Positions 3,870-32,591 of a DNA stretch of 34,256 nt are shown here, in pieces. The stretch's first letter is position 1, and each line of letters opens with the position of its first letter. The position numbers were made by a program, and so were the translations under genes. The notes below the pieces were generated by a model. It was not told the origin of the DNA and did no database searches. It saw only the letters and a list, made by a program, of their open reading frames with translations. Origin of the DNA: Actinomycetota bacterium (GTDB lineage Bacteria > Actinomycetota > UBA4738 > HRBIN12); assembly GCA_036554665.1 (NCBI GenBank), contig DATBMU010000157.1, forward strand, positions 1-34,256, given 5' to 3'.

Positions 3870-4721
3870 TCAGGTGCGACGGCGCTGGACCAGCACGTTG
3901 ACCGCCGCCGCGAGGATCCCCGCCGTGAACAGGATCGTGCCCATCACGTTCACCTGGGGAGGGATCCCGAGCCGCTGCGCGCCGTAGACCCACACCGGGA
4001 ACGTGTTCGTCTGGCCGGCGGTGAAGTTCGTGATCACGAAGTCGTCCAGCGACAGCACGAACGCGAGCAGGAACCCCGCCAGGATCGCCGGCGCGATCAG
4101 CGGGAGCGTGACCTTGAAGAACCCGGTGACCGGGGTCGCGAACAGGTCCTGCGCCGCCTCCTCGAGCGATCGGTCCAGGCCCTGGACGCGCGCCCGGACC
4201 GTCACGGCGACGAACGCGATCGAGAACCCGATGTGCGAGAGAAGGATCGTGGTGAAGCCGAGCGGCGCGTTCGCGAGCACGTACATCGACAGCAGCGAGG
4301 ACCCGAGCACGATCTCGGGCACCGCGATCGCCAGGAAGATCACGAAGTCGGTCAACCGGAGCCCCCGGAACCGGTAGCGCCCCAGCGCGAGGCCGAGCAG
4401 CGTCCCGAGCGCCGTCGCGACGGCCGCGGAGATCGGCGCGATCAGCAGGGAGTTCTTGAAGGCCTCGGGGAGGCCGGCGATGCCGAACGCGTTCTGCCAC
4501 CAGGCCGTGGTGAAGCCCCAGAACCGGGGCGTCTGGGCGGGGCGCACCCCGGGGATGTCGTTGAAGCTGTACAGGATCATCACGAAGATCGGGCTCGCGA
4601 GGTACAGGATCATCACGATCGTGTACGTGGGCAGGATGAACCGCGTCCACCGGCGGCGTGGCGGGTTGGCCGGAGGGAGATCGCGTGCGACGGGCCGCGC
4701 CTGTGTCGCGACCGCGCTCAT
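3870..4721 (-). CDS. potC: ABC transporter permease, spermidine/putrescine type (PotC-like)
   Basis: I chose the internal ATG at 4721 (MSAVATQ...), giving 283 aa. It forms an ATGA overlap with the potB-like stop. The longer 379-aa track ORF would overlap the upstream gene. There are six TM segments and an EAAQDLFATP EAA loop. Confidence 0.8.
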   Translation of the reverse strand: MSAVATQARPVARDLPPANPPRRRWTRFILPTYTIVMILYLASPIFVMILYSFNDIPGVRPAQTPRFWGFTTAWWQNAFGIAGLPEAFKNSLLIAPISAAVATALGTLLGLALGRYRFRGLRLTDFVIFLAIAVPEIVLGSSLLSMYVLANAPLGFTTILLSHIGFSIAFVAVTVRARVQGLDRSLEEAAQDLFATPVTGFFKVTLPLIAPAILAGFLLAFVLSLDDFVITNFTAGQTNTFPVWVYGAQRLGIPPQVNVMGTILFTAGILAAAVNVLVQRRRT

Positions 4722-5647
4722 GTCGCCGCCGCCGCCCGGGTCGCTTCCTCGGTTCCGAGGATCCTCGCGTAGATCGTCGCCAGGATGACCATCGCGACCA
4801 TCAGGACCACCGAGAGCGCCGCGGCCTCCGGATAGTCGGCTTCCGTGAGGAACTTCGTCTGGATGATGTTGCCGATCATCGTCGTGCCCGGTCCGCCGAG
4901 CAGTGACGCGTTGACGTAGTCGCCGGTCGCCGGCACGAACGTGAGCAGGAACGCCGCGAACACGCCGGGCAGGGACAGCGGCCAGACCACCTCGCGGAAC
5001 GCCTGCCACCGGGTGGAGTAGAGGTCCTTGGCGGCCTCGACGAGGCGCTTGTCGATCCGTTCGAGCGACACGTAGAGCGGCAGGGCGGTGAACGGCAGGA
5101 AGTTGTACGTGATCCCGGCGATCACCGCGAGCGGCGTCGCGAGCACGCGGAAGTCCTCGGGCAGCAGGCCGATGCTCTTGAACAGCCCGAGGACGGGTCC
5201 GTTGTCACCGAGGATGAACTTCCACTGCACGGTCCGGATCACGAACGAGACGAAGAACGGCAGGAGGATCAGCAGCAGGAGCGAGGACTTCCATCGCCCG
5301 CCGTAGAACGCGATCCAGTAGGTCATCGGGTAGGCGAGCAGGAGCGCGACGAACGTCACGATGATCGAGTACACGATCGACCGGAGGAACTGGGTCTGGT
5401 ACCCCGTGAGGACGTCGACGTAGTTCTGGAACTCCCACGTGAAGCTCAACCCGCCCGAGAGCAGGCCGCCGCTCTGCAGCGACGTGTAGATCATCAGGCC
5501 GAGCGGCAGCAGGAAGAAGATCGCGAGGTAGAGCGCCGCCGGCCCGAGCAGACCGTACGGGACGAGCCGGCGCCGCGTGCCGAGCGACCGGCGATCGTCG
5601 GAGTCGCCCGACCCCGCCTCCTCGATGACCGCGCCCGGCTCCCCCAC
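4718..5647 (-). CDS. potB: ABC transporter permease, spermidine/putrescine type (PotB-like)
   Basis: 309-aa polytopic protein with an EAAKDLYSTRWQAF EAA-loop motif, adjacent to the PotC-like and PotD-like genes. Confidence 0.8.
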   Translation of the reverse strand: MGEPGAVIEEAGSGDSDDRRSLGTRRRLVPYGLLGPAALYLAIFFLLPLGLMIYTSLQSGGLLSGGLSFTWEFQNYVDVLTGYQTQFLRSIVYSIIVTFVALLLAYPMTYWIAFYGGRWKSSLLLLILLPFFVSFVIRTVQWKFILGDNGPVLGLFKSIGLLPEDFRVLATPLAVIAGITYNFLPFTALPLYVSLERIDKRLVEAAKDLYSTRWQAFREVVWPLSLPGVFAAFLLTFVPATGDYVNASLLGGPGTTMIGNIIQTKFLTEADYPEAAALSVVLMVAMVILATIYARILGTEEATRAAAAT

Positions 5648-5662
5648 CCGCGTCGCCCTCGG

Positions 5663-6979
5663 TCAGCCCTGCGAGATCGGCAGGAAGATCGAGTCCCACT
5701 CCTCGACCTCCTCGTCCGTGGTCAGCGGGCGACCGAAGGAAGTGCGGGAGAGGAACGCCTCGTCGGGATACAGGTACGGGCTCTCCGCGGAGGCGCGGAG
5801 CTTGTTCGCGAGACCCTTGTCCCCGTCCTCCTCGGCCTGGTCCGCGTCGCGGAGCATCAGCTCCTGGGTCGCCGGGACGGGCGACATGTACTGCACCCAC
5901 TCGGCCACCATCGTCGCGGCCTCGGGGTCGTAGTAGTAGTCCATCACGGCCATCGCGCCGACCGGGTTCTGCGCCCCGGCCGGGATCAGCATGCTGTCGA
6001 CCCAGAGCAGCGCCCCGTCCTCAGGGAAGACGAACTGGTTCTCGAAGCCGAGCCAGATCGACCCGTAGATCACGTCGCCGGACCACCCCATCGCCGCGGA
6101 GAGGTTCCCGGCCCGCAGCTCATCCAGGTACTCGTTGCCGTAGTACCCGCGGACCACGCCGGCGTCCTTCTGCATCTGGAGCCAGGCCGCCGCCTCGCGC
6201 CACTCGTCCGGTCCGGACGTGGTCGGGTCGATCCCGAGGTTGATCATCACGAAGTCCGGCATGTCGTACGTCAGCATCCCGACCGAGCTCTGGCCGACCT
6301 TGGCCGGATCGGCCAGGTCCTGGAGCGTCGCGATCTCGCCGTTGACCATGCTCGGGTTGTAGCCGATGCCCGTGATGCCGGACTGCCACGCCATCCCGTT
6401 CGTGTTCTGGGGATCGAAGAACGGGTCCCGCGCCCAGGGCGCGGCGTTCGCGTCGAAGTTCGGCCGCCTCGACGGGTCGAGCGGGTACACCCAGTCGTTC
6501 GCGACCAGCGCGGTCAGGATGCGACCGTTCGTGATCACGATGATGTCCCAGCCGGGATCGTCCCCGGCCTCGAACAGCGGGCGGAGCCGCCCGAAGAACT
6601 CCTCGTTGCTGTTGATGACGTCCTGGTAGTTGACGCTGATGCCGGACTGCTCCTCGAACCGCGCGAGCGACGGGTTGTAGACGTCGCCGTTCTCGTCCTT
6701 GGCCTGGTCGAGGTAGAAGGGCCAGTTCGCGAAGTTCACCGTCGAGCCGGGCTCGCCCGCGTAGATCTCCGCGATGTCGAACGCGCCGTCGCCCCCCGTG
6801 CCGCCCCCTCCGCCGGTGCCGCCCCCGTCGCCGCCGCCGCACGCCGCGAGGAACGAAGCGAGGCTGAACCCGGCCACACCGATCCCGGCGCCCTTCAGGA
6901 CGCTCCGCCGGGTCAGGCGTCGGCGCATCAGCTCGTTCATCCGCAGATCGTCGATCCGCCGATCGTCCCGCTGGCTCAT
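5663..6979 (-). CDS. potD: Polyamine-type ABC substrate-binding lipoprotein (PotD/PotF-like) with a Tat-like signal
   Basis: I chose the ATG at 6979 (MSQRDDRR...), giving 438 aa. It forms an ATGA overlap with the potA stop. RRRLTRRSVLKGAGIGVAGFSLASFLAAC is a twin-arginine signal plus lipobox Cys, followed by a poly-Gly linker. The NFANWPFYLD motif is typical of PotD/PotF-family binding proteins. The 772-aa track ORF is an artefactual N-terminal extension through potA. Confidence 0.75.
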   Translation of the reverse strand: MSQRDDRRIDDLRMNELMRRRLTRRSVLKGAGIGVAGFSLASFLAACGGGDGGGTGGGGGTGGDGAFDIAEIYAGEPGSTVNFANWPFYLDQAKDENGDVYNPSLARFEEQSGISVNYQDVINSNEEFFGRLRPLFEAGDDPGWDIIVITNGRILTALVANDWVYPLDPSRRPNFDANAAPWARDPFFDPQNTNGMAWQSGITGIGYNPSMVNGEIATLQDLADPAKVGQSSVGMLTYDMPDFVMINLGIDPTTSGPDEWREAAAWLQMQKDAGVVRGYYGNEYLDELRAGNLSAAMGWSGDVIYGSIWLGFENQFVFPEDGALLWVDSMLIPAGAQNPVGAMAVMDYYYDPEAATMVAEWVQYMSPVPATQELMLRDADQAEEDGDKGLANKLRASAESPYLYPDEAFLSRTSFGRPLTTDEEVEEWDSIFLPISQG

Positions 6980-8103
6980 TCCTCTTCCTCCTCCATGGAG
7001 AGGCCCTCCTGGGGCAGCACCACGAACGTGTGCTCGGGCTGCCACGAGAGGCGGACGCGTTCGCCGGGCCGCGGGGCGGCCTCGGCGCCGAGGTTCTGGA
7101 CCCAGACCGTGAGCTCGTGCCCGCCGGGGCCCTCGACCTTGTACTGGTGGCTCACGCCGATGTAGGTGGACATCCGGAGCAGCCCGGTGATGGAGTTCCA
7201 GCCGGCACGGACGGGCGAGCCATCGTCGGCCGCGATCGTGATCTTCTCGGGCCGGACGCCCACCTTGACCGCCGCACCGGCCTGGAACGGAGCCCGGTCG
7301 GTCGGCAGGTGAACGAGGTCGCCGCCCGCGAGGAGGACGGTCGAGGTGCCGTTGGACCGCTCCTTCAGCTCGCCGTCGAGGAGGTTGGACGCGCCGAGGA
7401 ACCCGGCGACGAACTGCGTCTGAGGGCTCTCGTACACCTCCTCGGGCGGTCCGATCTGCTCGATCTTCCCCAGCCGCATGACCGCGAGGCGATCGGACAT
7501 CGTCATCGCCTCTTCCTGGTCGTGCGTCACGTAGATGAAGGTGATCCCGACCTCCTGCTGGATCCGCTTCAGCTCCAGCTGCATCTGCTTGCGCAGCTTG
7601 AGGTCGAGCGCGCCGAGCGGCTCGTCGAGCAGGAGGACCTTCGGGTGGTTCACGAGCGCTCGCGCGAGCGCCACGCGCTGCTGCTGGCCGCCGGACATCT
7701 GCGCCGGACGCCGCTTCTCGAACCCCGTGAGGTCGACGAGGCGAAGCGCCTCGTCCACGCGCGACTGGATCTGCTCGCCCGCCACCTTCCGGCGGCGGAG
7801 CCCGAACGCCACGTTGTCGAACACGTTCAGGTGCGGGAACAGGGCGTAGGACTGGAAGACCGTGTTCACGTCGCGCTTGTAGGGCGGGAGGTCGGTGACG
7901 TCTCGTCCCCCCAGGAAGATCGTCCCGCGGGAGGGCTCCTCGAACCCTCCGATCATTCGGAGCGTGGTCGTCTTGCCGCACCCGGAGGGGCCGAGCATGC
8001 TGAAGAACTCGCCCTCCGCGATGTCCAGCGACAGATCGTCGACGGCGACCATCTCGCCGAATTCCTTGGTCACACGTTCGAGCCGAACGTCGACCTCCGC
8101 CAC
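6976..8103 (-). CDS. potA: ABC transporter ATP-binding protein, spermidine/putrescine import type
   Basis: 375 aa with Walker A GPSGCGKTT, signature MSGGQQQRVALARAL and Walker B LLLDEP, plus a C-terminal TOBE/MalK-like regulatory domain. GTG start with a GAAGGGGG SD. Confidence 0.9.
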   Translation of the reverse strand: MAEVDVRLERVTKEFGEMVAVDDLSLDIAEGEFFSMLGPSGCGKTTTLRMIGGFEEPSRGTIFLGGRDVTDLPPYKRDVNTVFQSYALFPHLNVFDNVAFGLRRRKVAGEQIQSRVDEALRLVDLTGFEKRRPAQMSGGQQQRVALARALVNHPKVLLLDEPLGALDLKLRKQMQLELKRIQQEVGITFIYVTHDQEEAMTMSDRLAVMRLGKIEQIGPPEEVYESPQTQFVAGFLGASNLLDGELKERSNGTSTVLLAGGDLVHLPTDRAPFQAGAAVKVGVRPEKITIAADDGSPVRAGWNSITGLLRMSTYIGVSHQYKVEGPGGHELTVWVQNLGAEAAPRPGERVRLSWQPEHTFVVLPQEGLSMEEEEE

Positions 8104-15512: not shown

Positions 15513-16433
15513 TCAGCCCGGCGACGCGTCCTGCTCGGGCGCGGCCTTCGTCTCCGCCTCGCGCCGCAGGACCTCGTTGAAGGACATGATCGCGACCTCG
15601 ATCTGGTCGCGGTCGGGCGGCTTCGTCGTGATCTTCTGCAGCCACAGCCCCGGCAACATCACCGCGCGCATCGGACGCGAGTCCGGGAAGCGCGCCCCGA
15701 GCCGCAGGAGCTCGAACGCGAGCCCCGCGATGATCGGGATCGCCACGATGCGCGAGCCGATCCGCCACCAGATCCCGGGGTCGCCGAAGAGCGCGAACAC
15801 GAAGATCGTGATGACCATCACGAGCAGCAGGAAGTTCGTCCCGCAGCGGACGTGGAGCGTGGAGTAGCGGTCCACGCGGTCGGGGACCAGCGGCTCGTCG
15901 TGCTCGTACGCCGCGATCGTCTTGTGCTCCGCCCCGTGGTAGGCGAACACCCGCCGGATGTCCTTCGACCGGCCGATCAGCAGGAGGTAGCCGAGGAACA
16001 GCGCCACGCGGAACAGCCCCTCGAGGATGTTCACGAGCAACCCGGAGTCGATGTGCCGGCCCACCCAGCCGAACGTCGCCGCCGGCAGCACGATGAACAG
16101 CCCGATGAACAGCACGCCGGCGAGCGCCATCGACAGCCCCATCTGTCCGGACGTGAGCCGCTCGTCCTCCGGCGCCGACTCGCGCGCCGAGATCGACAGC
16201 GCGCGGAACCCGATCGCGAGCGCCTGTCCGAGCGCGATCACACCGCGCAGGAACGGCTTGCCGAGGACCGGGTGCCGCTTCACCACCGAGTCGATGTCGT
16301 GCGACTCGATGTGGATGTCGCCGCTCGGCCTGCGGACCGCGACGGCCCAGACCTCGCGGCCGCGCATCATCACGCCCTCGACGACCGCCTGGCCGCCGTA
16401 GAAGTGGTTCGGTCTCGTGGTCGGGTCGCTCAC
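15513..16433 (-). CDS. DUF1385 (YqhQ-like) membrane protein
   Basis: 306 aa with a GTG start. The N-terminus YGGQAVVEGVMMRG and the AYHGAEHK motif are hallmarks of DUF1385, a family commonly found next to rpmE/prfA/prmC. Confidence 0.8.
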   Translation of the reverse strand: MSDPTTRPNHFYGGQAVVEGVMMRGREVWAVAVRRPSGDIHIESHDIDSVVKRHPVLGKPFLRGVIALGQALAIGFRALSISARESAPEDERLTSGQMGLSMALAGVLFIGLFIVLPAATFGWVGRHIDSGLLVNILEGLFRVALFLGYLLLIGRSKDIRRVFAYHGAEHKTIAAYEHDEPLVPDRVDRYSTLHVRCGTNFLLLVMVITIFVFALFGDPGIWWRIGSRIVAIPIIAGLAFELLRLGARFPDSRPMRAVMLPGLWLQKITTKPPDRDQIEVAIMSFNEVLRREAETKAAPEQDASPG

Positions 16434-16446
16434 CCGTGCCGCCGGG

Positions 16447-16740
16447 TCAGGACTGCTCGGACCCGGGCGCCGGCTCGGCCGACTCGACCGGCGCCGGACG
16501 TGTGGCGGCGCGAGCGCCGGCGGCGGCCTTCTGCTGCTCCTGCTGCTTCGCGTACCGCCGCTGGAACCGCTCGACCCGGCCCCCCGTGTCGACCAGCTTC
16601 TGCTTGCCCGTGTAGAACGGGTGGCAGTTCGAGCAGATCTCCACGCGGAGCTCCGACCTCGTGCTCCGGGTCTGGAACGTGTTCCCGCAGGAGCAGTGGA
16701 CGGTGGCGATCTGGTACTCGGGGTGGATGCCCTGCTTCAT
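16447..16740 (-). CDS. rpmE: 50S ribosomal protein L31 (Zn-ribbon type) with a C-terminal extension
   Basis: The 97-aa protein starts MKQGIHPEY, with CSC...[13 protein letters not shown] zinc-binding cysteines. About 30 extra Ala/Pro/Glu/Gln-rich residues follow the conserved core. Confidence 0.93.
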
Positions 16741-16754
16741 CTCTCTCCTCTCAT

Positions 16755-16780
16755 CGCCCGCTTCGCTGGCGAAGCGGGCG
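16755..16780 (-). promoter_or_regulatory. Strong GC hairpin between rho and rpmE
   Basis: CGCCCGCTTCGC-TG-GCGAAGCGGGCG is a perfect 12-nt inverted repeat (effectively an 11-bp stem with a 4-nt loop). It sits 52 nt after the rho stop and 14 nt before the rpmE ATG, directly abutting the GAGAGGAGAGAG SD region. There is no U tract. Confidence 0.4.
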
Positions 16781-16831
16781 CTGCGTTGCGCCTACCGCGC
16801 TCGCGCTCCTCGAGGCGCCGGTGGTTGCACT

Positions 16832-18412
16832 CTACGAGGCCGGGGCCTTCGCGATCTCCTTCAGGAACTGCTCGTTGGACTTCGTCTGGCGGATCTTGTC
16901 GGTCAACAGCTCCAGGGCCGCGCCCGGCTCGAGCGCGTGGAGCACCCGACGCAGGCGCCAGACGAGCGCGAGCTCCTCGGTCGGCAGGAGCAGCTCCTCC
17001 TTCCGCGTGCTCGACGCCTCGACGTTGATCGCCGGGAACAGCCGCTTCTCGGCCATCTGGCGGTCGAGGCGGATCTCCATGTTCCCCGTGCCCTTGAACT
17101 CCTCGAAGATCCCCTCGTCCATGCGGGAGCCGGTCTCGACGAGCGCGCTCGCGATGATCGTGAGCGAGCCGCCCTCCTCGATGTTCCGCGCCGCGCCGAA
17201 GAACCGGCGGGGCGGATACAGGGCCGTCGAGTCGATGCCGCCCGACAGGATCTTGCCCGAGGCCGGGGCGGCGAGGTTGTACGCGCGGGCGAGCCGGGTG
17301 ATCGAGTCGAGGATGATCGCGACGTCCTTGCCCATCTCGGCCAGGCGCTTGGCCCGCTCCAGCACGAGCTCGGTCACCTGGATGTGCTGGTCCGGCGGCT
17401 TGTCGAACGTCGAGTAGACGACCTCGGCCGGGGTGACCGTGCGCTGCCAGTCGGTGACCTCCTCCGGCCGCTCGTCGACCAGCAGGATGATCACGTGCGT
17501 CTCCGGGCTGGACGAGATGATCCCGTTCGCGATGTTCTTCAGGACCGTCGTCTTGCCCGCCTTCGGCGGCGACACGACCATCCCCCGCTGGCCCTTGCCG
17601 ATCGGCGCGACCATGTCGATGATCCGGCCGGTCACGTCGGTCGGACCCGTCTCCAGACGGAACCGCTCGTGCGGGAACAGCGGGGTGAGCTTCTCGAAGT
17701 TCGGCCGCGCCTTCGCGGTCTCGGGGTCCAGCTCGTTCACCGTGTCGATCTGCAGCAGCGCGAAGTACTTCTCGTTGTCCTTGGGCTGCCGCACCGTCCC
17801 GGTGACGGTGTCCCCCTTGCGCAGCATGAACCGGCGCACCTGCGAGAGCGACACGTAGATGTCCTGCTGCCCCGGGAGGAACCCGGAGGTGCGCAGGAAC
17901 CCGTAGCCCTCGGGCAGGATGTCGAGGAGGCCCGTCGCCGTCGGGGCGCTCGCGATCTCCTCCTCGCGCATCTCCACCTCTCGCTGGCGGCGCTCCTCGC
18001 GCTGCCGGCGACGCTCCTCGCGGGAGGGCCGACGGCGGCCGCCGTCGCGGTCCCGACCCGGTCCGCCGGGACCTCCGCCCTCACGGCGGTCGTCCCGCCG
18101 CTCGAAGCGTTCGGGCTGCGGACGCTCGTCGCGGCGCTCCTGCGGTCGCGCGCCGCCGTTGCCGGAGGGTGCCTCGCGCACCGCGGCGCTCGCCTCGCCG
18201 TTGCCCGCCGGCTCGGTCGCCCGCTCCTCGGCCGTCGCCGGGGGCTCCGGCGCGCGCGCCCTCGCGGGCTCACCGTTCGCGCGCGTCAGGATCCGTTCGA
18301 TCAGGTCGGCCTTCTTCAGGCTCTTGTGACCCTCGATCCCGAGGTCCGACGCGATCTGATGCAGCTCGGCCGCGACCTTGCCCTCGAGGGCGCTCTTCTC
18401 CATGGTGGCCAC
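16832..18412 (-). CDS. rho: Transcription termination factor Rho with an Arg/Glu/Gly-rich N-terminal insertion
   Basis: 526 aa with the N-terminal Rho_N helix bundle ([26 protein letters not shown]), the cold-shock-like RNA-binding domain (GYGFLR) and Walker A PPKAGKTT. The GTG start at 18412 has an AAGGAG SD 5 nt upstream. The in-frame ATG at 18403 is a poorer alternative. Confidence 0.95.
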
Positions 18413-19075
18413 TCAGGCTCCTTTCCCCAGTCCCTCCTGGAGGCCCTTCCAGTCCTGGAGGAACTTGTCCAAACCGATGTCGGTGAGCGGGTGCTTCACG
18501 AGCTGCGTGAACACCGCGTACGGCATCGTCGCGATGTCGGCTCCCGCGAGCGCGGATTCCACGACGTGCATCGGGTGGCGGAGCGACGCCGCCAGCACGC
18601 TCGTCTCGTAGCCCTGGATCTCGTAGATCTCACAGATCCGACGGAGCGCCTCCATCCCGTCCGACGCCACGTCGTCGATCCGTCCGAGGAACGGCGACAC
18701 GATGTACGCGCCGACCTCGGCCGCCAGGATCGCCTGCGCCGGTGAGAACACCAGCGTCACGTTGATGCGGATCCCGTCCGCGACGAGCCGCTTCCCGGCC
18801 GACAGGCCGTCCGGGGTCATCGGGACCTTGACGACCGCGTTGGGCGCCATCTGCGCGAGCTGCAGCCCCTGCTCGTACATCGGGTCGGCCTCGAGCTCCG
18901 TCGTCTCGAGCGAGATCGGCCCGTCGACCTCCGCGAGGATCTCCTTCCAGACGCGATCCGGGTCGTCGGCCTCCTTCGCGACGAGCGAGGGGTTCGTCGT
19001 GACGCCGCCGAGCACGCCCCAGCCGTTGATCTCGCGGATCTCGTCGATGTTCGCGGTGTCGAGGAACAGCTTCAT
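18413..19075 (-). CDS. Fructose-6-phosphate aldolase / short transaldolase (type 3B)
   Basis: The internal ATG at 19075 gives 220 aa. MKLFLDTANIDEIRE...GVTTNPSL, the VVKVP Schiff-base lysine region and FLGRIDD are typical of the TalC/FSA family. It forms an ATGA overlap with the 2PGK stop. The 581-aa track ORF is an artefact. Confidence 0.88.
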   Translation of the reverse strand: MKLFLDTANIDEIREINGWGVLGGVTTNPSLVAKEADDPDRVWKEILAEVDGPISLETTELEADPMYEQGLQLAQMAPNAVVKVPMTPDGLSAGKRLVADGIRINVTLVFSPAQAILAAEVGAYIVSPFLGRIDDVASDGMEALRRICEIYEIQGYETSVLAASLRHPMHVVESALAGADIATMPYAVFTQLVKHPLTDIGLDKFLQDWKGLQEGLGKGA

Positions 19076-20046
19076 CCGCTCCCTCCTTCGGTCGCGCTCC
19101 CGACGCGGGTCCGGTGCCCCCGGGCGCGCTCGGTGGCGCGCTCCATGACCAGGTCGATGATCGCCGCCAGCGACCGGTCGAAGTTGAAGTTCGGGATCAC
19201 GGGCACGCCGTGGCTCAGAGCCTGGCCCTTGATGTAGCGCTGGACGCGCCGGATGTTCTCGAACTGCTGCAGGTATCGATCGGCCGACCGCCCGGCGTGA
19301 TCGGCCGCCCGAGCCGCGAAGTGGCTCCGGTGCGCGTCCTCCTCGTCCACCGTCACGATCACCGTGACGGCGAGGACCCGGTCGGCCCAGGCGCTCGGGT
19401 CCAGGAACCCGGGCACGACGTGTGCGCCCTCGATGATCAGGCTCGTGCCCTCCATCGCCGCGCGGTCCAGCAGCGCGTTCACGCCGACCGAGACCGCCGC
19501 CGTCTGCTCCCGGAACCCCACGGTGAGCGCGTCCCGCGACGGCGGCTCCCGCAGCGTCTCGCCGGCCTCGAACGAGGACGCGTGCAGCGAGGGCATCAGC
19601 TCGCGCGAGAACACCGCGCGCATCACCTCGCGCACCGCGTCGGTCGCGACGACGCGGACGATCCCGAGCCGGGTCGCGAGCTGGGTCGCGATCGTGGACT
19701 TCCCCACGCCGGTCGCGCCGCCGATCAGGATCACGATCGGGACGTCGAGCGCCGCCACCTCGCGCCAGCGCCGGTAGTTGTCCGCGTACCGCTCGCCGGC
19801 GAGCTCCTCGATCACCGAGAGCGTGAGCGAGTCCAGCTCCTCGCTCGTGACGGAGGGGGCCCCGCGCGCGACCAGGCGCTCCTCGACGGCCTCGGCGACC
19901 TGGTAGGCACGGTAGGGCGACAGCCCGGTCACCATCACCTCGGAGGCGCGCAGCCCCTTCGAGTACGGCAGCCCCGACAGGCCGTCGACGATGAGGATGT
20001 GCGGTCGGTCCTTCCGGGGACCGGACGCCGGGTCCTGCTGGGTCAT
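19072..20046 (-). CDS. 2-phosphoglycerate kinase (COG2074-like; ATP-cone-like N-terminus plus P-loop kinase)
   Basis: The ATG at 20046 forms an ATGA overlap with the upstream stop and gives 324 aa. The N-terminal ILIVDG...PYSKGLRASEVMVTGL...AYQVAEAVEERL resembles an ATP-cone. The following IVILIGGATGVGKSTIATQLATRLGI..VVATDAVREVMR matches the archaeal 2PGK family as I remember it. This was not verified by search. Confidence 0.65.
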   Translation of the reverse strand: MTQQDPASGPRKDRPHILIVDGLSGLPYSKGLRASEVMVTGLSPYRAYQVAEAVEERLVARGAPSVTSEELDSLTLSVIEELAGERYADNYRRWREVAALDVPIVILIGGATGVGKSTIATQLATRLGIVRVVATDAVREVMRAVFSRELMPSLHASSFEAGETLREPPSRDALTVGFREQTAAVSVGVNALLDRAAMEGTSLIIEGAHVVPGFLDPSAWADRVLAVTVIVTVDEEDAHRSHFAARAADHAGRSADRYLQQFENIRRVQRYIKGQALSHGVPVIPNFNFDRSLAAIIDLVMERATERARGHRTRVGSATEGGSG

Positions 20047-21380
20047 CTGCGAGCCTTCCGCTCCACCGCGAGCTCGATCGTCCATCGCACCGCGTCGCCG
20101 AGATCCGGCTCGCCCTCGAGCACCACGGCCCGGTTGTCGACGAACACGACCTGCGCACCTCGGGCCAGGGCCCGTTCGCAGGCTACGTCGACCGCCGCGG
20201 CTTTCAGCTCGGTGAGCAGCACCTGATACCCTCCGGCGCCGTCCAGCTCTCGCGCCAGCTCCGCTCGATCCGCGAGGCTGGCGCTCCACCCGACCACCCG
20301 GCAGCCGTGGTTCCGCTCCAAGATCCCGGCCTGCCTCGCGGCGGCCGGCCCCGGTGCCGTGGTGGTGAAGAACACGTCCTTGCCCTCGACGTCGCCGAGC
20401 GGCTGTGGATGGAAGTCCGTCACGATGAGCCGGGCATCACCATGCAGTCGCCGAACGTGGGATCTGAGGGCAGGGAGGTTCTCGAGCCCGGCAGGGCTGT
20501 CGGCCATGGTAGCAACGACCAGGTCCGATAGCAAGAGTCGGAACGGGCCGAGGTAGCCCGCCACGTACTCCAGGGGCGCCGAGGCCGGCACGACGAGGAT
20601 CCCGGCGTCCCACGGGACGGAGGGCACCGCCGATCCGCTGCCCTCGAGCACGACCAGCCCGGGGTCGCGCGCGGCCGCGAGCTCGGCCGCCTCGCGCACG
20701 TTGGTCGCGACCGGCCGCCCGGCGAGCCCGCCGCCCGCCCGGCGAGCGCCGATCGTGGTCACGCCCGTCGTCACCGCGTCCTCGAGGTAGTCCGAGGCCG
20801 CGTGCTGCCCGGCCCGGACGAGCTCGAGGAGCCGATCGAGCGTGACGGTACCGGCCTCGGCGACCTGCGGCTCGGGCGGGCCGCCGCGACCCATCGCGAC
20901 GACGATCGGGTCCCGGCCCGTCGCCGCGGCCGTCCTCGCGACCTCGCCGGCGATCGCGGTCTTGCCGGTCCGCTTGCCCGTGCCGATCACCGCCAGGGTC
21001 GCTGCCGCGAGCGCCGGGCCCTCGATCGGCGGGTCGAGCCGGAAGTCGCCTCCGAGGTACGGCAGGCCGCGGGCGAGCGCGATCGCGGCGAGCTCCATCC
21101 GCTCCCGGTAGCCGAGGACCGGCTCGTCCGACAGATCCAGGACGCCGTCCAGCCCGGCGGGCGCGAGCTCGTCGATCGACGCGGCCAGGGCGGCCATCGG
21201 GTCGCCGGTCACGGTCCGCAGCGGGACGCCGAGGTCGGGCGGCGCGCCCGGGTCGAGCTTCTCGAGGCCGCCCACCAGCAGCGCGGCCACGGGCTCGAGC
21301 CCGCGGTCTCGCGCCACGTCGATCCCCCACCGGGTCACGGGTGGGTAGTGCTCACCGTCGACGAGGACGAGGACCCTCAC
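20043..21380 (-). CDS. Cyclic 2,3-diphosphoglycerate synthetase-like protein
   Basis: 445 aa with a GTG start and a GAGGAGG SD 5 nt upstream. The N-terminus VLVDGEHYPPVT and the internal P-loop IGTGKRTGKT, together with the size (the archaeal enzyme is about 460 aa), resemble Methanothermus cDPG synthetase as I recall it. Adjacency to a 2PGK-like gene strengthens the call. An HMM or BLAST search is needed to confirm it. Confidence 0.55.
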   Translation of the reverse strand: MRVLVLVDGEHYPPVTRWGIDVARDRGLEPVAALLVGGLEKLDPGAPPDLGVPLRTVTGDPMAALAASIDELAPAGLDGVLDLSDEPVLGYRERMELAAIALARGLPYLGGDFRLDPPIEGPALAAATLAVIGTGKRTGKTAIAGEVARTAAATGRDPIVVAMGRGGPPEPQVAEAGTVTLDRLLELVRAGQHAASDYLEDAVTTGVTTIGARRAGGGLAGRPVATNVREAAELAAARDPGLVVLEGSGSAVPSVPWDAGILVVPASAPLEYVAGYLGPFRLLLSDLVVATMADSPAGLENLPALRSHVRRLHGDARLIVTDFHPQPLGDVEGKDVFFTTTAPGPAAARQAGILERNHGCRVVGWSASLADRAELARELDGAGGYQVLLTELKAAAVDVACERALARGAQVVFVDNRAVVLEGEPDLGDAVRWTIELAVERKARR

Positions 21381-21416
21381 GACGCCTCCTCGGTCGTGGA
21401 TCGGGACGGGCGGGGG

Positions 21417-22220
21417 CTACTCCCCTTGCTGGCTCTGAGCGACGGCCGTCCGCTGCTGCACCGGCGGCTCGAGCTCGCGCAGGTACTGCTCGCCGGTCGA
21501 CAGGGAGAAGTGCGCGATCACGCTCCCGCCGCCGAACGGGTACCGCCGCGTGATCTTCACGTCGTCGCCCTCGAACTCGAGCACGTTGTAGCAGGGCTTC
21601 GTGTATCCCCGCACGCGGAGCGACGCGACCGTTCCGGCGTTCGCCACGTACAGGTCCTCGAGCCGCCAGACGTACGGGACGTGCTTGTGCCCGGAGAGCA
21701 CGATGTTCACGCCGGCGCTGATCAGCTCCTCGAGCAGGTCGCCCGCGTCCATCACGGTGCTCCGCTCGCGCCCGGTGCCCGGGATCGGCAGCAGGTGGTG
21801 GTGCAGCACGAAGACCTTCAGCTCGGCGGGGACTTCGAAGCGCTCGCGGATCCACTCGTACCGCTCGCGCCCGACCTGCCCCTCGTTGATGTCCGGCTCG
21901 CTGGAGTCGACGCCCACGATCCTGGCCCCTCGGACGTCGGCGGCCCAGTGCCGCTCACCGATCAGCTCCTCGAAGTGGAGGTACCCGACGTTCCGCGCGT
22001 CGTGGTTCCCGGGCACCGTGAAGATCGGAGCCTCGATCCGCTGCGCGTAGGCCACCCAGTTCTTGAACTCCTGCCGATAGCCCTCGTTCGTGAGGTCGCC
22101 GCTGCAGATGACCACGTCCGGCGCCAGCTCGTTCAGCTCCACGATCACGCGGTTCATCAGGTTCGGGACGAAATAGGGGGAGCCGACGTGCGGGTCCGAG
22201 ATGTGGGCGATCGTGACCAC
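21417..22220 (-). CDS. Calcineurin-like metallophosphoesterase
   Basis: I chose the GTG at 22220 (VVTIAHISDPHVG...), giving 267 aa. All the motifs are present: DxH (SDPH), GD (SGD), GNHD, HHH and GHKH. The 692-aa track ORF is an artefact. An in-frame GTG at 22253 is an alternative start. Confidence 0.8.
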   Translation of the reverse strand: MVTIAHISDPHVGSPYFVPNLMNRVIVELNELAPDVVICSGDLTNEGYRQEFKNWVAYAQRIEAPIFTVPGNHDARNVGYLHFEELIGERHWAADVRGARIVGVDSSEPDINEGQVGRERYEWIRERFEVPAELKVFVLHHHLLPIPGTGRERSTVMDAGDLLEELISAGVNIVLSGHKHVPYVWRLEDLYVANAGTVASLRVRGYTKPCYNVLEFEGDDVKITRRYPFGGGSVIAHFSLSTGEQYLRELEPPVQQRTAVAQSQQGE

Positions 22221-22228
22221 GGCCTTCC

Positions 22229-22234
22229 AGTCTA
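22229..22234 (-). promoter_or_regulatory. Candidate -10 box (TAGACT) for a leaderless metallophosphoesterase-cDPGS-like operon transcript
   Basis: The minus strand reads cggcTAGACTggaaggccGTG. The hexamer ends 8 nt before the proposed GTG start. The identical hexamer recurs upstream of the GDE-like gene and the tRNA. The -35 is weak. Confidence 0.35.
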
Positions 22235-22292
22235 GCCGTGGGCCGACGGCCACCCGGGCTCGCGCGCCGGCCGTGGGACGATACGGGCGGCC

Positions 22293-23465
22293 GTGAACGT
22301 GCTCGACGTCGTCCTGCTCTGCCTGATCGCCCTCGCCGGCATCTCCGGATACCGCCGCGGGCTCATGCTGCAGACCCTCGCGTTCGGGGGATTGCTCCTC
22401 GGGCTCGTCGTCGGCGCGCTCGTCGCCCCCCCGCTCGCCGGCCTCGCCGACGACACCGGCGCCCGGGCGGCGATCGCCGCGGCCACGCTGATCCTCTTCG
22501 CGGCGGCCGGCGACGGGGCCGGGTGGTTCGTCGGCCATCGGGTGCGCGAGCGCACGCGGGCCACGCGGTTCGCGCCCGCCGATGCGGTCGGCGGCTCGGT
22601 CGTGGCGGTCGTCGCCTCGCTGCTCGCGGTCTGGTTCATCGCCCTCAACCTCGTCAACGGCCCGTTCCCCGGCGTGGCGAGGCAGATCCGCGGGTCCGCC
22701 GTGGTGCGGACCCTCGACGGCGCGCTGCCGGAACCCCCGTCCCTGCTCGCGGAGGCGGGGGCGCTGTTCGACCGGTTCGGGTTCCCCGACGTCTTCTCCG
22801 GCATCCCGCCGGTCCCCGCGGCGCCGGTCGAGCCGCCGAGCGGCGCGGAGGCCCAGGCCGCGTTCGACGCGGCCGCCCGGAGCACCGTCATGGTCTACGG
22901 CCAGGCGTGCGACCACGTCCAGGAGGGGTCCGGGTTCGTGGCGGCCGAGGGGTACGTCGTGACGAACGCCCACGTCGTGGCCGGCATCGACGACCCGATC
23001 GTCGAGACCCGCGCCGGCGCGAGCGAGCACGCGACGACCGTGCTGTTCGATCCCGAGCTCGACGTGGCGGTGCTGTTCGTCGAGGCCCCGCTCGGGCCCG
23101 TGCTCCCCCTCGCCACCTCGGACGCCGAGCGCGGGGACACGGGCGCGGTCCTGGGCTTCCCGGACGGCGGCCCGCTCGACGCGCAACGGGCGGCGGTCCT
23201 CCGGCCGATCCTCGCCGTCGGCCGCGACATCTACGGAGGCGGCGAGACCGAGCGCGCCGTCCTGGAGCTCCAGACCCTCGTCCGGCCGGGGAACTCGGGC
23301 GGCCCGTTCGTCCTTTCCGACGGCGCCGTGGCCGGGGTCGTCTTCGCGGCCTCCTCGTCGGAGGACGGCGTCGGCTACGCGATCGCGGCGGGCGACGTGC
23401 GACCGCACCTCGACCGGGCGACCGGCACCACGACGGAGGTCGGGACGGGCCCCTGCGTGCGGTAG
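22293..23465 (+). CDS. MarP-like membrane serine protease (CvpA-family TM domain plus trypsin-like S1 domain)
   Basis: 390 aa with a GTG start. It has four N-terminal TM helices (CvpA-like) and a C-terminal chymotrypsin fold with TNAHVV (His), DVAVL (Asp) and GNSGGP (Ser). The architecture is that of M. tuberculosis MarP (Rv3671c). Confidence 0.8.
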   Translation: MNVLDVVLLCLIALAGISGYRRGLMLQTLAFGGLLLGLVVGALVAPPLAGLADDTGARAAIAAATLILFAAAGDGAGWFVGHRVRERTRATRFAPADAVGGSVVAVVASLLAVWFIALNLVNGPFPGVARQIRGSAVVRTLDGALPEPPSLLAEAGALFDRFGFPDVFSGIPPVPAAPVEPPSGAEAQAAFDAAARSTVMVYGQACDHVQEGSGFVAAEGYVVTNAHVVAGIDDPIVETRAGASEHATTVLFDPELDVAVLFVEAPLGPVLPLATSDAERGDTGAVLGFPDGGPLDAQRAAVLRPILAVGRDIYGGGETERAVLELQTLVRPGNSGGPFVLSDGAVAGVVFAASSSEDGVGYAIAAGDVRPHLDRATGTTTEVGTGPCVR

Positions 23466-23578: not shown

Positions 23579-24346
23579 ATGGCTGCCGGTCGTCGAACGA
23601 GGGTCGCGGTGCTCGTCGTGGCGACGCTCGGCGCGCTCGCGGCGTTCTCGGACGCGCCGGCCCGGGCCGCGCTCCTCGGCGAACGCGGGGCCGGGAGTTC
23701 CCAACCGGCGCTCGCGCGCCCGGCCGCCGAACGCCCGCGTCCCGAGCGCGTCCGGCTCGTCGAGATCGAGCAGGCGATGCCGATCACCGCCCGACCCGGC
23801 GGCGGCCGGGTCGTCGGCGCGATGCCGGCCGGCTCGCGCTTCTACGGGACCTCGACGGTCGCGTGGGTCCGGCGCGTGAGCCTCGACGGGCGGTTCGGCC
23901 TCGTCGACGTGCCGTACACCGCCGACCACGTCTCGGGCTGGATCGCCCTGCGCGGGCTGGACATCTCGTGGACGCGCATCCGCGTCACGGCGGACCTGTC
24001 GGAGCACCGGATCACCGTGCGTCGTGGCGACCGCGTGCTGTTCCGCGCGCCGGTCGCGACGGGGGCGCCGGGCTCGCCGACCCCGACCGGTCGCTACTTC
24101 GTGACGGACCGGGTCGCGTTCCCGGGCGGCGGCGTGCTCGGGACGTACGCGTTCGGGATCTCGGGGATCCAGCCGAGGCTGCCGGCCGGATGGACCGGCG
24201 GCGACCAGCTCGCGATCCACGGGACGAACGCGCCGTCGTCGATCGGTCGGTCCGCGAGCGCCGGCTGCCTCCGCGCCTCCGAGCTCGTGCTTGACCGGCT
24301 GAAGCCGCTCCTGCGGCTGGGCACGCCCGTGATCGTGCGCGCCTAG
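23579..24346 (+). CDS. Secreted L,D-transpeptidase (YkuD domain) with an SH3b-like N-terminal domain
   Basis: 255 aa with signal peptide RRTRVAVLVVATLGALAAFSDAPARA. The catalytic signature is HGTNAPSSIGRSASAGCLR (His...Ser-x-Gly-Cys-Leu-Arg). Confidence 0.85.
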   Translation: MAAGRRTRVAVLVVATLGALAAFSDAPARAALLGERGAGSSQPALARPAAERPRPERVRLVEIEQAMPITARPGGGRVVGAMPAGSRFYGTSTVAWVRRVSLDGRFGLVDVPYTADHVSGWIALRGLDISWTRIRVTADLSEHRITVRRGDRVLFRAPVATGAPGSPTPTGRYFVTDRVAFPGGGVLGTYAFGISGIQPRLPAGWTGGDQLAIHGTNAPSSIGRSASAGCLRASELVLDRLKPLLRLGTPVIVRA

Positions 24347-32504: not shown

Positions 32505-32576
<72 letters not shown>

Positions 32577-32591
32577 CCCAGGACGCGCCGC

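Follow-up and report, generated by a model that had tools for sequence, protein, structure and literature searches.

Five consecutive genes on the minus strand of a 34,256-nucleotide (nt) stretch of Actinomycetota DNA (contig DATBMU010000157.1; the whole stretch is called the window, and all positions are window coordinates) encode a metallophosphoesterase, a homolog of cyclic 2,3-diphosphoglycerate (cDPG) synthetase (cDPGS), a P-loop kinase resembling 2-phosphoglycerate kinase (2PGK), a short-type transaldolase and Rho (Table 1). The synthetase and kinase genes are likely orthologous to the archaeal genes for cDPG synthesis and are set in a module that would both synthesize and recycle the compound, with a reserve role being more plausible than heat protection. 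The sequence-only reading of this DNA had singled out the pair; the 220-amino-acid (aa) transaldolase gene downstream and the 267-aa metallophosphoesterase gene upstream of the synthetase extend it on both sides.

The coordinates, lengths and motifs given in that reading for the two overlapping genes are correct, and the 445-aa and 324-aa products were found again in an independent public gene call (P0001 and P0121, respectively). The pair had also been described as fused to the rho operon. It does lie in the same tight run as rho, although a transaldolase gene stands between the kinase and rho, and rho is probably co-transcribed with the transaldolase and the genes before it. Promoter and terminator scans of positions 16000-22600 found no terminator-like or sigma-70-like site inside the cluster. 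An Rfam scan returned a single tRNA and nothing inside the cluster, where no riboswitch or attenuator is evident. This tRNA-Arg(CCG), at 32505-32578 on the plus strand, stands alone on the opposite strand between genes for a response regulator and an F420H2-dependent quinone reductase.

The bulk GC content of the cluster (0.72-0.74) equals that of its flanks, and GC at third codon positions (GC3) reaches 0.91 in the 445-aa frame and 0.94 in the 324-aa frame (0.91-0.96 over the cluster), as in the neighboring genes. The composition of the gene pair is therefore native, in agreement with the sequence-only reading.

Table 1. Features of the cluster and of the adjoining thrB-rho interval
Feature	Position	Strand	Remarks
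Metallophosphoesterase, 267 aa	22220..21417	-	GTG start after GGAAGG; TAG stop; heads the cluster
Shine-Dalgarno-like GAGGAGG	21385..21391	-	4 nt ahead of the cDPGS GTG; read from the sequence
cDPGS homolog, 445 aa	21380..20043	-	GTG start; 36 nt after the metallophosphoesterase stop
ATGA overlap, cDPGS stop/2PGK start	20043..20046	-	read from the sequence; suggests translational coupling
2PGK-like P-loop kinase, 324 aa	20046..19072	-	ATG start; putative ATP-cone-like N-terminal domain
ATGA overlap, 2PGK stop/transaldolase start	19072..19075	-	read from the sequence
Short-type transaldolase, 220 aa (TalC/MipB class)	19075..18413	-	TIGR00875; solved relatives
Rho	18412..16832	-	TIGR00767, 610.7 bits; GTG at 18412 abuts the transaldolase TGA (18415-18413)
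CvpA + trypsin membrane protease, MarP-like architecture	22293-23465	+	divergent from the cluster
YkuD L,D-transpeptidase	23579-24346	+	divergent from the cluster
GDE_N_bis + MGH1-like (mannosylglycerate-hydrolase-like) glycoside hydrolase, 734 aa	24358-26562	-	between thrB and the cluster

The synthetase homolog and its kinase partner

The 445-aa open reading frame (ORF) contains VLVDGEHYPPVT and the P-loop GTGKRTGKT. A phmmer search of the PDB matched its product to the cDPGS of Methanothermus fervidus (8ORU/8ORK; E 4.2e-92, 41% identity), with residues 2-440 of the query aligning end to end with 5-453 of 459, and to a second deposited cDPGS, 9SXB (E 8e-89). The two proteins are of comparable length (445 and 460 aa) and share the P-loop form GTGKRxGKT. 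The AlphaFold2 (AF2) model of the 445-aa protein has a predicted local distance difference test (pLDDT) value of 94.7 and contains the two-domain fold of the family, including the unique N-terminal domain of ~127 aa and the P-loop core. In Foldseek, this model superposes on ligand-bound 8ORU with template-modeling (TM) scores of 0.95/0.92 and a root-mean-square deviation (rmsd) of 1.8 Å over 458 columns, while the next fold, LpxK, reaches a TM of only 0.40.

The active site is conserved as well. In the M. fervidus enzyme, 2,3-diphosphoglycerate (2,3-DPG) is contacted by E45 and K46 (both of the partner subunit), K145 and R146; Mg is liganded by T150 and D208, with K149 and K406 as charge shields; and the nucleotide is contacted by E305, P335, T353 and E404 (De Rose et al. 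2023, PMC10690619). Ten of the eleven mappable residues are identical in the 445-aa protein: in the alignment, E40, K41, K136, R137 and K140 correspond to E45, K46, K145, R146 and K149, and T141, D197, T341, E391 and K393 to T150, D208, T353, E404 and K406. The eleventh, E305, is replaced conservatively by D294, and an Asp is also present in 9SXB. For the twelfth published residue, P335, the deposited sequence holds no proline at that position; P337 and P339, close by, are conserved. Most functional positions are invariant in a 45-sequence family alignment, including K41 and D197, and E40 is kept in at least 90% of the sequences.

A conspicuous difference from the M. fervidus enzyme lies at residues 211-218, where the GCRRCGGG of most family representatives reads GARRAGGG, both cysteines being alanines. 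The two-cysteine form is found in 42-43 of 68 representatives and the Ala/Ala form in 15 of the 68; the cysteines go unmentioned in the structural paper (PMC10690619). Local Pfam and NCBIfam scans returned no family for the 445-aa protein. However, the local Pfam copy apparently lacked PF27272, so that this null scan is not evidence against cDPGS membership. Precomputed annotation assigns PF27272 (CpgS) to P0001, which is identical to the 445-aa protein, and to all its relatives, and JGI and NCBI use the name cDPG synthetase. Judged by sequence and modeled fold, the 445-aa protein is a true member of the cDPG synthetase family, as had been proposed, and no search placed it in another P-loop family.

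The product of the 324-aa ORF, with the Walker A motif GGATGVGKST and the segment ATDAVREVMR, is best matched among 18,950 NCBIfam models by NF003259, 2-phosphoglycerate kinase (E 6.6e-88, model positions 10-298 of 306), although its 295 bits fall below the curated equivalog cut-off of 343. It spans the full length of the archaeal family (COG2074; NF003259/PRK04220), with which it shares the Walker A form GGxTGVGKST, a putative N-terminal ATP-cone-like domain followed by a nucleoside monophosphate (NMP) kinase-like domain, and the pairing with cDPGS. The Pfam ATP-cone match (PF03477; E 0.008) is sub-threshold, at 17.1 bits against a cut-off of 25.8; the same domain is recorded on the homolog P0233 and on the neighbor of cDPGS in locus L089. 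In the AF2 model (pLDDT 81.7), built from a comparatively shallow alignment, residues 17-98 fold into a beta-hairpin and four helices, and the C-terminal domain resembles NMP kinases. No solved homolog of the kinase was found in the structure search.

The motifs GGxxGxGKST, TD..RE..R, GF..Q and EG.H.VPG are common to the cDPGS-linked kinase homologs of distant lineages. A kinase gene adjoins cDPGS in 79 of 80 loci from related genomes and in 30 of 74 informative loci of a diverse metagenome set (both described below). The assignment follows from the best-family match together with this recurrent genetic coupling: the protein is 2PGK-like, is placed by its best match within rather than outside the 2PGK family and is predicted to phosphorylate 2-phosphoglycerate (2-PG), in line with the sequence-only reading. 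The computational checks suggested by that reading all turned out to support it.

Distribution and neighborhoods of the gene cluster

When all 1.84 billion cluster representatives were scanned with HMMER, only 995 clusters (50% identity) matched at E<=1e-3 and 238 at E<=1e-30; a word-indexed search yielded more than 7,700 cDPGS clusters at 90% identity. The genome-locus set consists of the best 80 loci, all from related Actinomycetota metagenome-assembled genomes (MAGs), with cDPGS 66-81% identical to that of the window. The order phosphoesterase-cDPGS-2PGK-transaldolase-rho is kept in all 80 as far as the contig reaches, L060, which is without rho, being the exception. No frameshifts or stop codons were seen in the relatives. 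The sequence-only reading had treated a complete gene pair in a GC-rich bacterium as out of the ordinary; the pair is indeed present and complete, but it is no rare oddity, being widespread in Actinomycetota and already named by JGI and NCBI. One MAG, MFD10007.bin.3.88, holds two complete five-gene clusters on two contigs (L007 and L013), which could mean that the bin mixes strains or that the cluster has been duplicated.

The same five-gene order recurs in low-GC (0.44-0.48) bacterial contigs whose cDPGS is only 41-43% identical to that of the window (L081 and L083). In L083, hom-thrC and a gene for an archaeal-type phosphoglycerate mutase lie ahead of the cluster; L081 belongs to an Actinomycetota MAG, and its cluster is followed by rpmE-prfA-prmC-sua5. 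Overall, the order is found in lineages whose cDPGS identity is only ~41-46%, and since synteny is kept down to ~41% identity, the cluster is old within Actinomycetota. The cDPGS family tree is unrooted, and a split of it into "bacterial" (Ala/Arg-rich) and "archaeal" (Lys/Ile-rich) halves was rejected, as Lys/Ile-rich members adjoin genes for bacterial Rho, PolA and a bacterial-type LeuRS.

The diverse metagenome set comprises 80 loci from a profile-driven scan, typed by tblastn, some of them too short or with partial partners. The arrangement of the window (type A) is present in 10 complete loci and in 3 more that are cut before rho, and in 6 others the class II fructose-bisphosphatase GlpX replaces the transaldolase (type B). 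Type C, on GC-rich contigs, has the order phosphoesterase-cDPGS-GlpX-rho with a gap of ~290 nt between cDPGS and GlpX-rho and no adjacent kinase; 8 loci are complete (L144, L145, L148, L149, L162, L166, L168 and L169), and in 2 (L153 and L156) the contig starts too near cDPGS to include the phosphoesterase. The type C kinase must be encoded elsewhere in the genome or be dispensable. In 11 low-GC, Methanobacteriales-like loci (type D; L120, L124 and L137-L142 among them), cDPGS is followed by a RimB-like (PF05618) gene of 176-192 aa, which also follows it in L090 (9405-9935) and L091 (5914-6492), so that the pairing is a conserved one.

Adjacency of cDPGS and 2PGK is not confined to the rho context (L084, L085, L087, L089, L150, L152 and L165). 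In the GC-rich L087, ccmE, ccmF and further genes are followed by phosphoesterase-cDPGS-2PGK-GlpX with overlapping stops and starts. Three loci on low-GC sediment contigs (type E) have the order cDPGS-2PGK-CBS pair-505-aa phosphoesterase, the CBS-pair gene lying at L150:7247-7666, L152:7237-7668 and L165:3452-3883. A PhoU/TrkA_C gene and an ABC transporter are found nearby, hinting at phosphate- or adenylate-linked regulation.

In the remaining arrangements (types F and G, 22 loci), no partner gene was detected, cDPGS standing alone or beside an ABC transporter with iPGM or a GntR regulator. The transporters are orthologous (L106:1165-7890 and L118:4182-10137; also L110, L117, L122 and L135) and consist of SBP_bac_6/8, a fused double permease and a TOBE_2 ATPase, accompanied by iPGM in L106 and by a GntR/UTRA regulator in L118. 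L106 may be archaeal, since it encodes a CDC48-type AAA ATPase. The ABC transporter of the window (3870-8103) was considered as a counterpart of this cDPGS-flanking system and rejected, the solute-binding proteins being without similarity.

The linked phosphoesterase, the transaldolase and the genomic setting

The 267-aa protein matches Pfam Metallophos (E 6e-20) and has intact DxH, GD, GNHD, HHH and GHKH motifs, which are those of the calcineurin-like fold. Its nearest solved relatives, GpdQ (9e-10) and Rv0805 (7e-9), are distant. An ortholog adjoins cDPGS in 79 of the 80 genome loci and in 39 of 72 informative metagenome loci, in at least three arrangements, upstream or downstream, and in at least two genomic neighborhoods. 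Where rho is part of the neighborhood, it precedes cDPGS (the window; L083:5210-6001); in the ccm/glpX context it is upstream with overlapping stop and start (L087:5198-6004); and on low-GC contigs it is downstream, after the CBS-pair gene (L150:7663-9186; L152 and L165). This recurrence in varied layouts argues against a chance neighbor. By tblastn typing, the cDPGS-linked phosphoesterases are 38-100% identical to the best of three references (the window, L087 and L083), and on this similarity they form a subfamily of their own, apart from the GpdQ/Rv0805 class.

Since pyrophosphatases such as LpxH and ApaH belong to the calcineurin-like phosphoesterases, hydrolysis of cDPG or 2,3-DPG by a member of this fold class is chemically reasonable. 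To our knowledge, the gene for the cDPG hydrolase of Methanothermobacter thermautotrophicus has never been identified. The activity in that organism is membrane-bound and inhibited by K+ and inorganic phosphate (Pi) (PMC1224877). The linked phosphoesterase, predicted to be metal-dependent, may tentatively be regarded as the missing cDPG hydrolase or as a 2,3-DPG phosphatase. Together with cDPGS and 2PGK it might then complete a cDPG cycle in soil Actinomycetota and other bacteria, leading from cDPG through 2,3-DPG towards 3-phosphoglycerate and gluconeogenesis and providing a rechargeable reserve of carbon, phosphate and phosphoanhydride bonds.

The 220-aa protein scores 268.9 bits against TIGR00875, over the cut-off, and bears the automatic name fructose-6-phosphate aldolase (FSA). 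This name was dropped, as the protein is far closer to the transaldolase 1VPX (4e-76), which with 1WX0, 3R8R and 3S0C is among its closest solved relatives, than to E. coli FSA (~1e-32). Its residues E57 and F129 match the Glu/Phe pair of transaldolases, not the Gln/Tyr of FSA. The slot after the kinase is thus held by an enzyme acting at the level of fructose 6-phosphate, either a transaldolase or GlpX, and phosphoglycerate mutase genes are found near cDPGS in L083 (archaeal-type) and L106 (iPGM). The cDPG of M. thermautotrophicus has been tied to gluconeogenesis and interpreted as a reserve of carbon and phosphate (PMC1224877). By analogy, the transaldolase or GlpX and phosphoglycerate mutase neighbors would echo a role of cDPG as a side branch or reserve of gluconeogenesis.

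Upstream, the cluster is flanked by genes for the F420H2-quinone reductase, the response regulator, argS, a GNAT gene, hom, thrC and thrB, and downstream by rho, rpmE, DUF1385, a DivIVA-like gene, prfA, prmC, sua5, LMW-PTP, rpiB and glyA, followed by a GT4 (WecA-like) gene, an ABC transporter and atpB-E-F-H-A. We take this order to be typical of Actinomycetes such as Mycobacterium. The host is a bacterium, given the bacterial markers Rho, RF1, PrmC and L31 in the window and the actinobacterial order argS-hom-thrC-thrB...rho-rpmE-prfA-atp. The closest synthetase relatives all come from uncultured Actinomycetota MAGs.

Between thrB and rho, the insert comprises the GDE/MGH1-like glycoside hydrolase, the plus-strand YkuD transpeptidase and CvpA-trypsin protease, and the five-gene run. 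Only 72 nt separate the start of the protease from that of the metallophosphoesterase. The 734-aa hydrolase may be a further enzyme of compatible-solute or glycogen metabolism. In Rho itself (16832-18412), an Arg-, Glu-, Asp- and Gly-rich insert of ~115 residues separates the Rho_N domain from the RNA-binding domain.

A proposed cDPG cycle, competing explanations and implications

In the proposed pathway, the kinase would use ATP to convert 2-PG into 2,3-DPG. The synthetase would follow the mechanism described for M. fervidus, in which ATP activates the 2-phosphate of 2,3-DPG and the 3-phosphate attacks, releasing Pi and closing the cyclic pyrophosphate ring of cDPG (PMC10690619). The phosphoesterase would open or dephosphorylate cDPG or 2,3-DPG, thereby completing a recycling loop. 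The genes form a co-directional cluster, linked by translational coupling and inserted at the conserved actinobacterial thrB-rho junction of an uncultured soil lineage. Its main role would be to supply a mobilizable anionic pool that holds carbon, phosphate and phosphoanhydride energy and is connected to gluconeogenesis; stress protection or a solute effect would be a possible added benefit. With intact, tightly linked copies of both genes present, it is probable that common soil bacteria make cDPG as well.

Several points weigh against this pathway. The score of the kinase below its curated cut-off is one, and NCBI labels some kinase orthologs "hypothetical protein". The 2PGK family also includes other activities, namely mevalonate-3-phosphate 5-kinase (NF008996) and plant LPA1 of phytate synthesis; score and functional diversity together leave room for another kinase substrate. 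Type C is a bacterial sub-clade without a kinase adjacent to cDPGS. In the methanogens in which cDPG is proven, cDPGS lies among unrelated genes beside a RimB-like gene, with neither 2PGK nor a phosphoesterase close by, the flanks covered being 8 kb on each side in Methanothermobacter and, on the M. fervidus contig, 4.5 kb upstream and ~0.7 kb downstream. The operon linkage to 2PGK, phosphoesterase and transaldolase thus sets the bacterial locus apart from that of M. fervidus, and no ortholog of the phosphoesterase stands next to cDPGS in these two methanogen loci. The hydrolase of M. thermautotrophicus is membrane-bound (PMC1224877), whereas the bacterial candidate lacks an obvious membrane segment and looks soluble. 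A role of the phosphoesterase unrelated to cDPG is conceivable because its nearest relatives, GpdQ and Rv0805, are a glycerophosphodiesterase and a cyclic-nucleotide phosphodiesterase. Finally, literature searches for bacterial cDPG, cDPGS or 2PGK found no report of the metabolite or of an enzyme.

The best-surviving alternative, though a rather unlikely one, is that of a classical extremolyte, in which cDPG would build up to high levels, chiefly shielding proteins and DNA from heat, desiccation or oxidative stress as it does in hyperthermophilic methanogens, and the phosphoesterase and transaldolase would be incidental. The bacterial enzymes have their orthologs in M. fervidus, and cDPG stabilizes proteins and scavenges radicals (PMC10690619). 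In the extremolyte systems of (hyper)thermophilic methanogens it reaches 0.07-1.1 M and rises with temperature. The host here is a high-GC soil bacterium and not a thermophilic methanogenic archaeon, as in the M. fervidus system. The IVYWREL fraction of 34 window proteins (0.430; charged-minus-polar bias 9.6) gives a growth-temperature estimate of ~68 °C, which comes from a small, housekeeping-biased sample of 72% GC and is too weakly founded as evidence of thermophily. This estimate conflicts with the temperate soil from which most of the related MAGs appear to come, their MFD and SMAG isolate labels presumably denoting soil surveys; other MAG names indicate groundwater. The sample labels Centralia (1 MAG) and Lejia (2 MAGs) are exceptions that fit an extremolyte better; we assume that they refer to a coal-fire-heated soil and an Atacama lake, respectively. 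For soil bacteria, the extremolyte of the sequence-only reading probably puts the emphasis in the wrong place. A cDPGS gene is also present in mesophilic Methanobacterium and Methanobrevibacter and is therefore not a marker of thermophily. Moreover, the linkage to hydrolase-type enzymes and to enzymes of gluconeogenesis and the pentose phosphate pathway points to turnover instead of static accumulation.

It is considerably less probable that the pathway has been repurposed and its product is not cDPG. The kinase might supply only 2,3-bisphosphoglycerate, for instance as a cofactor or regulator, or the synthetase homolog might cyclize or pyrophosphorylate another bis-phosphorylated acid or run in reverse to synthesize ATP. 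The reservations about the kinase noted above are compatible with such a scheme, as are the GARRAGGG of the window clade, the cDPGS of type C without an adjacent kinase and the reported reversibility of the M. fervidus enzyme. However, the residues that bind 2,3-DPG and Mg (E45, K46, K145, R146, T150 and D208 in M. fervidus numbering) are all identical and mostly invariant, the AF2 model fits the ligand-bound closed form, and the kinase and synthetase genes are neighbors in many lineages. A relic that is inactive, or an archaeal fragment binned by mistake, without function in the bacterium, for which only the general rarity of the family speaks (238 clusters among 1.84 billion representatives), is effectively refuted by conservation, as the ORFs are intact, GC and GC3 are host-like, the genes are embedded between bacterial thrB and rho-rpmE-prfA, the cluster is syntenic in 80 MAG loci, and the catalytic residues are kept.

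The synthetase-kinase pair is not a new kind of system, since its genes are orthologs of a known pathway and are automatically annotated in thousands of entries. Not reflected in the literature are the bacterial breadth of the pathway, its operon organization and the conserved phosphoesterase: primary papers of 2023 (PMC10690619) and 2025 describe cDPG as exclusive to hyperthermophilic methanogens, and evolutionary studies of ammonia-oxidizing archaea use cDPG synthetase as a thermophily trait. If widespread soil Actinomycetota make cDPG, its role would have to be rethought as that of a phosphate, carbon and energy buffer or of a protectant against desiccation and oxidative stress, and the cDPGS gene would be an unsafe marker of thermophily. 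GC-rich enzymes derived from mesophiles would then also be at hand for making a solute of commercial interest. The linked phosphoesterase offers a concrete candidate for the degradative enzyme, to which, as far as we know, no gene has been assigned. A full bacterial cDPG cycle, if true, would overturn the view of cDPG as a compound confined to methanogens and primarily thermoprotectant.

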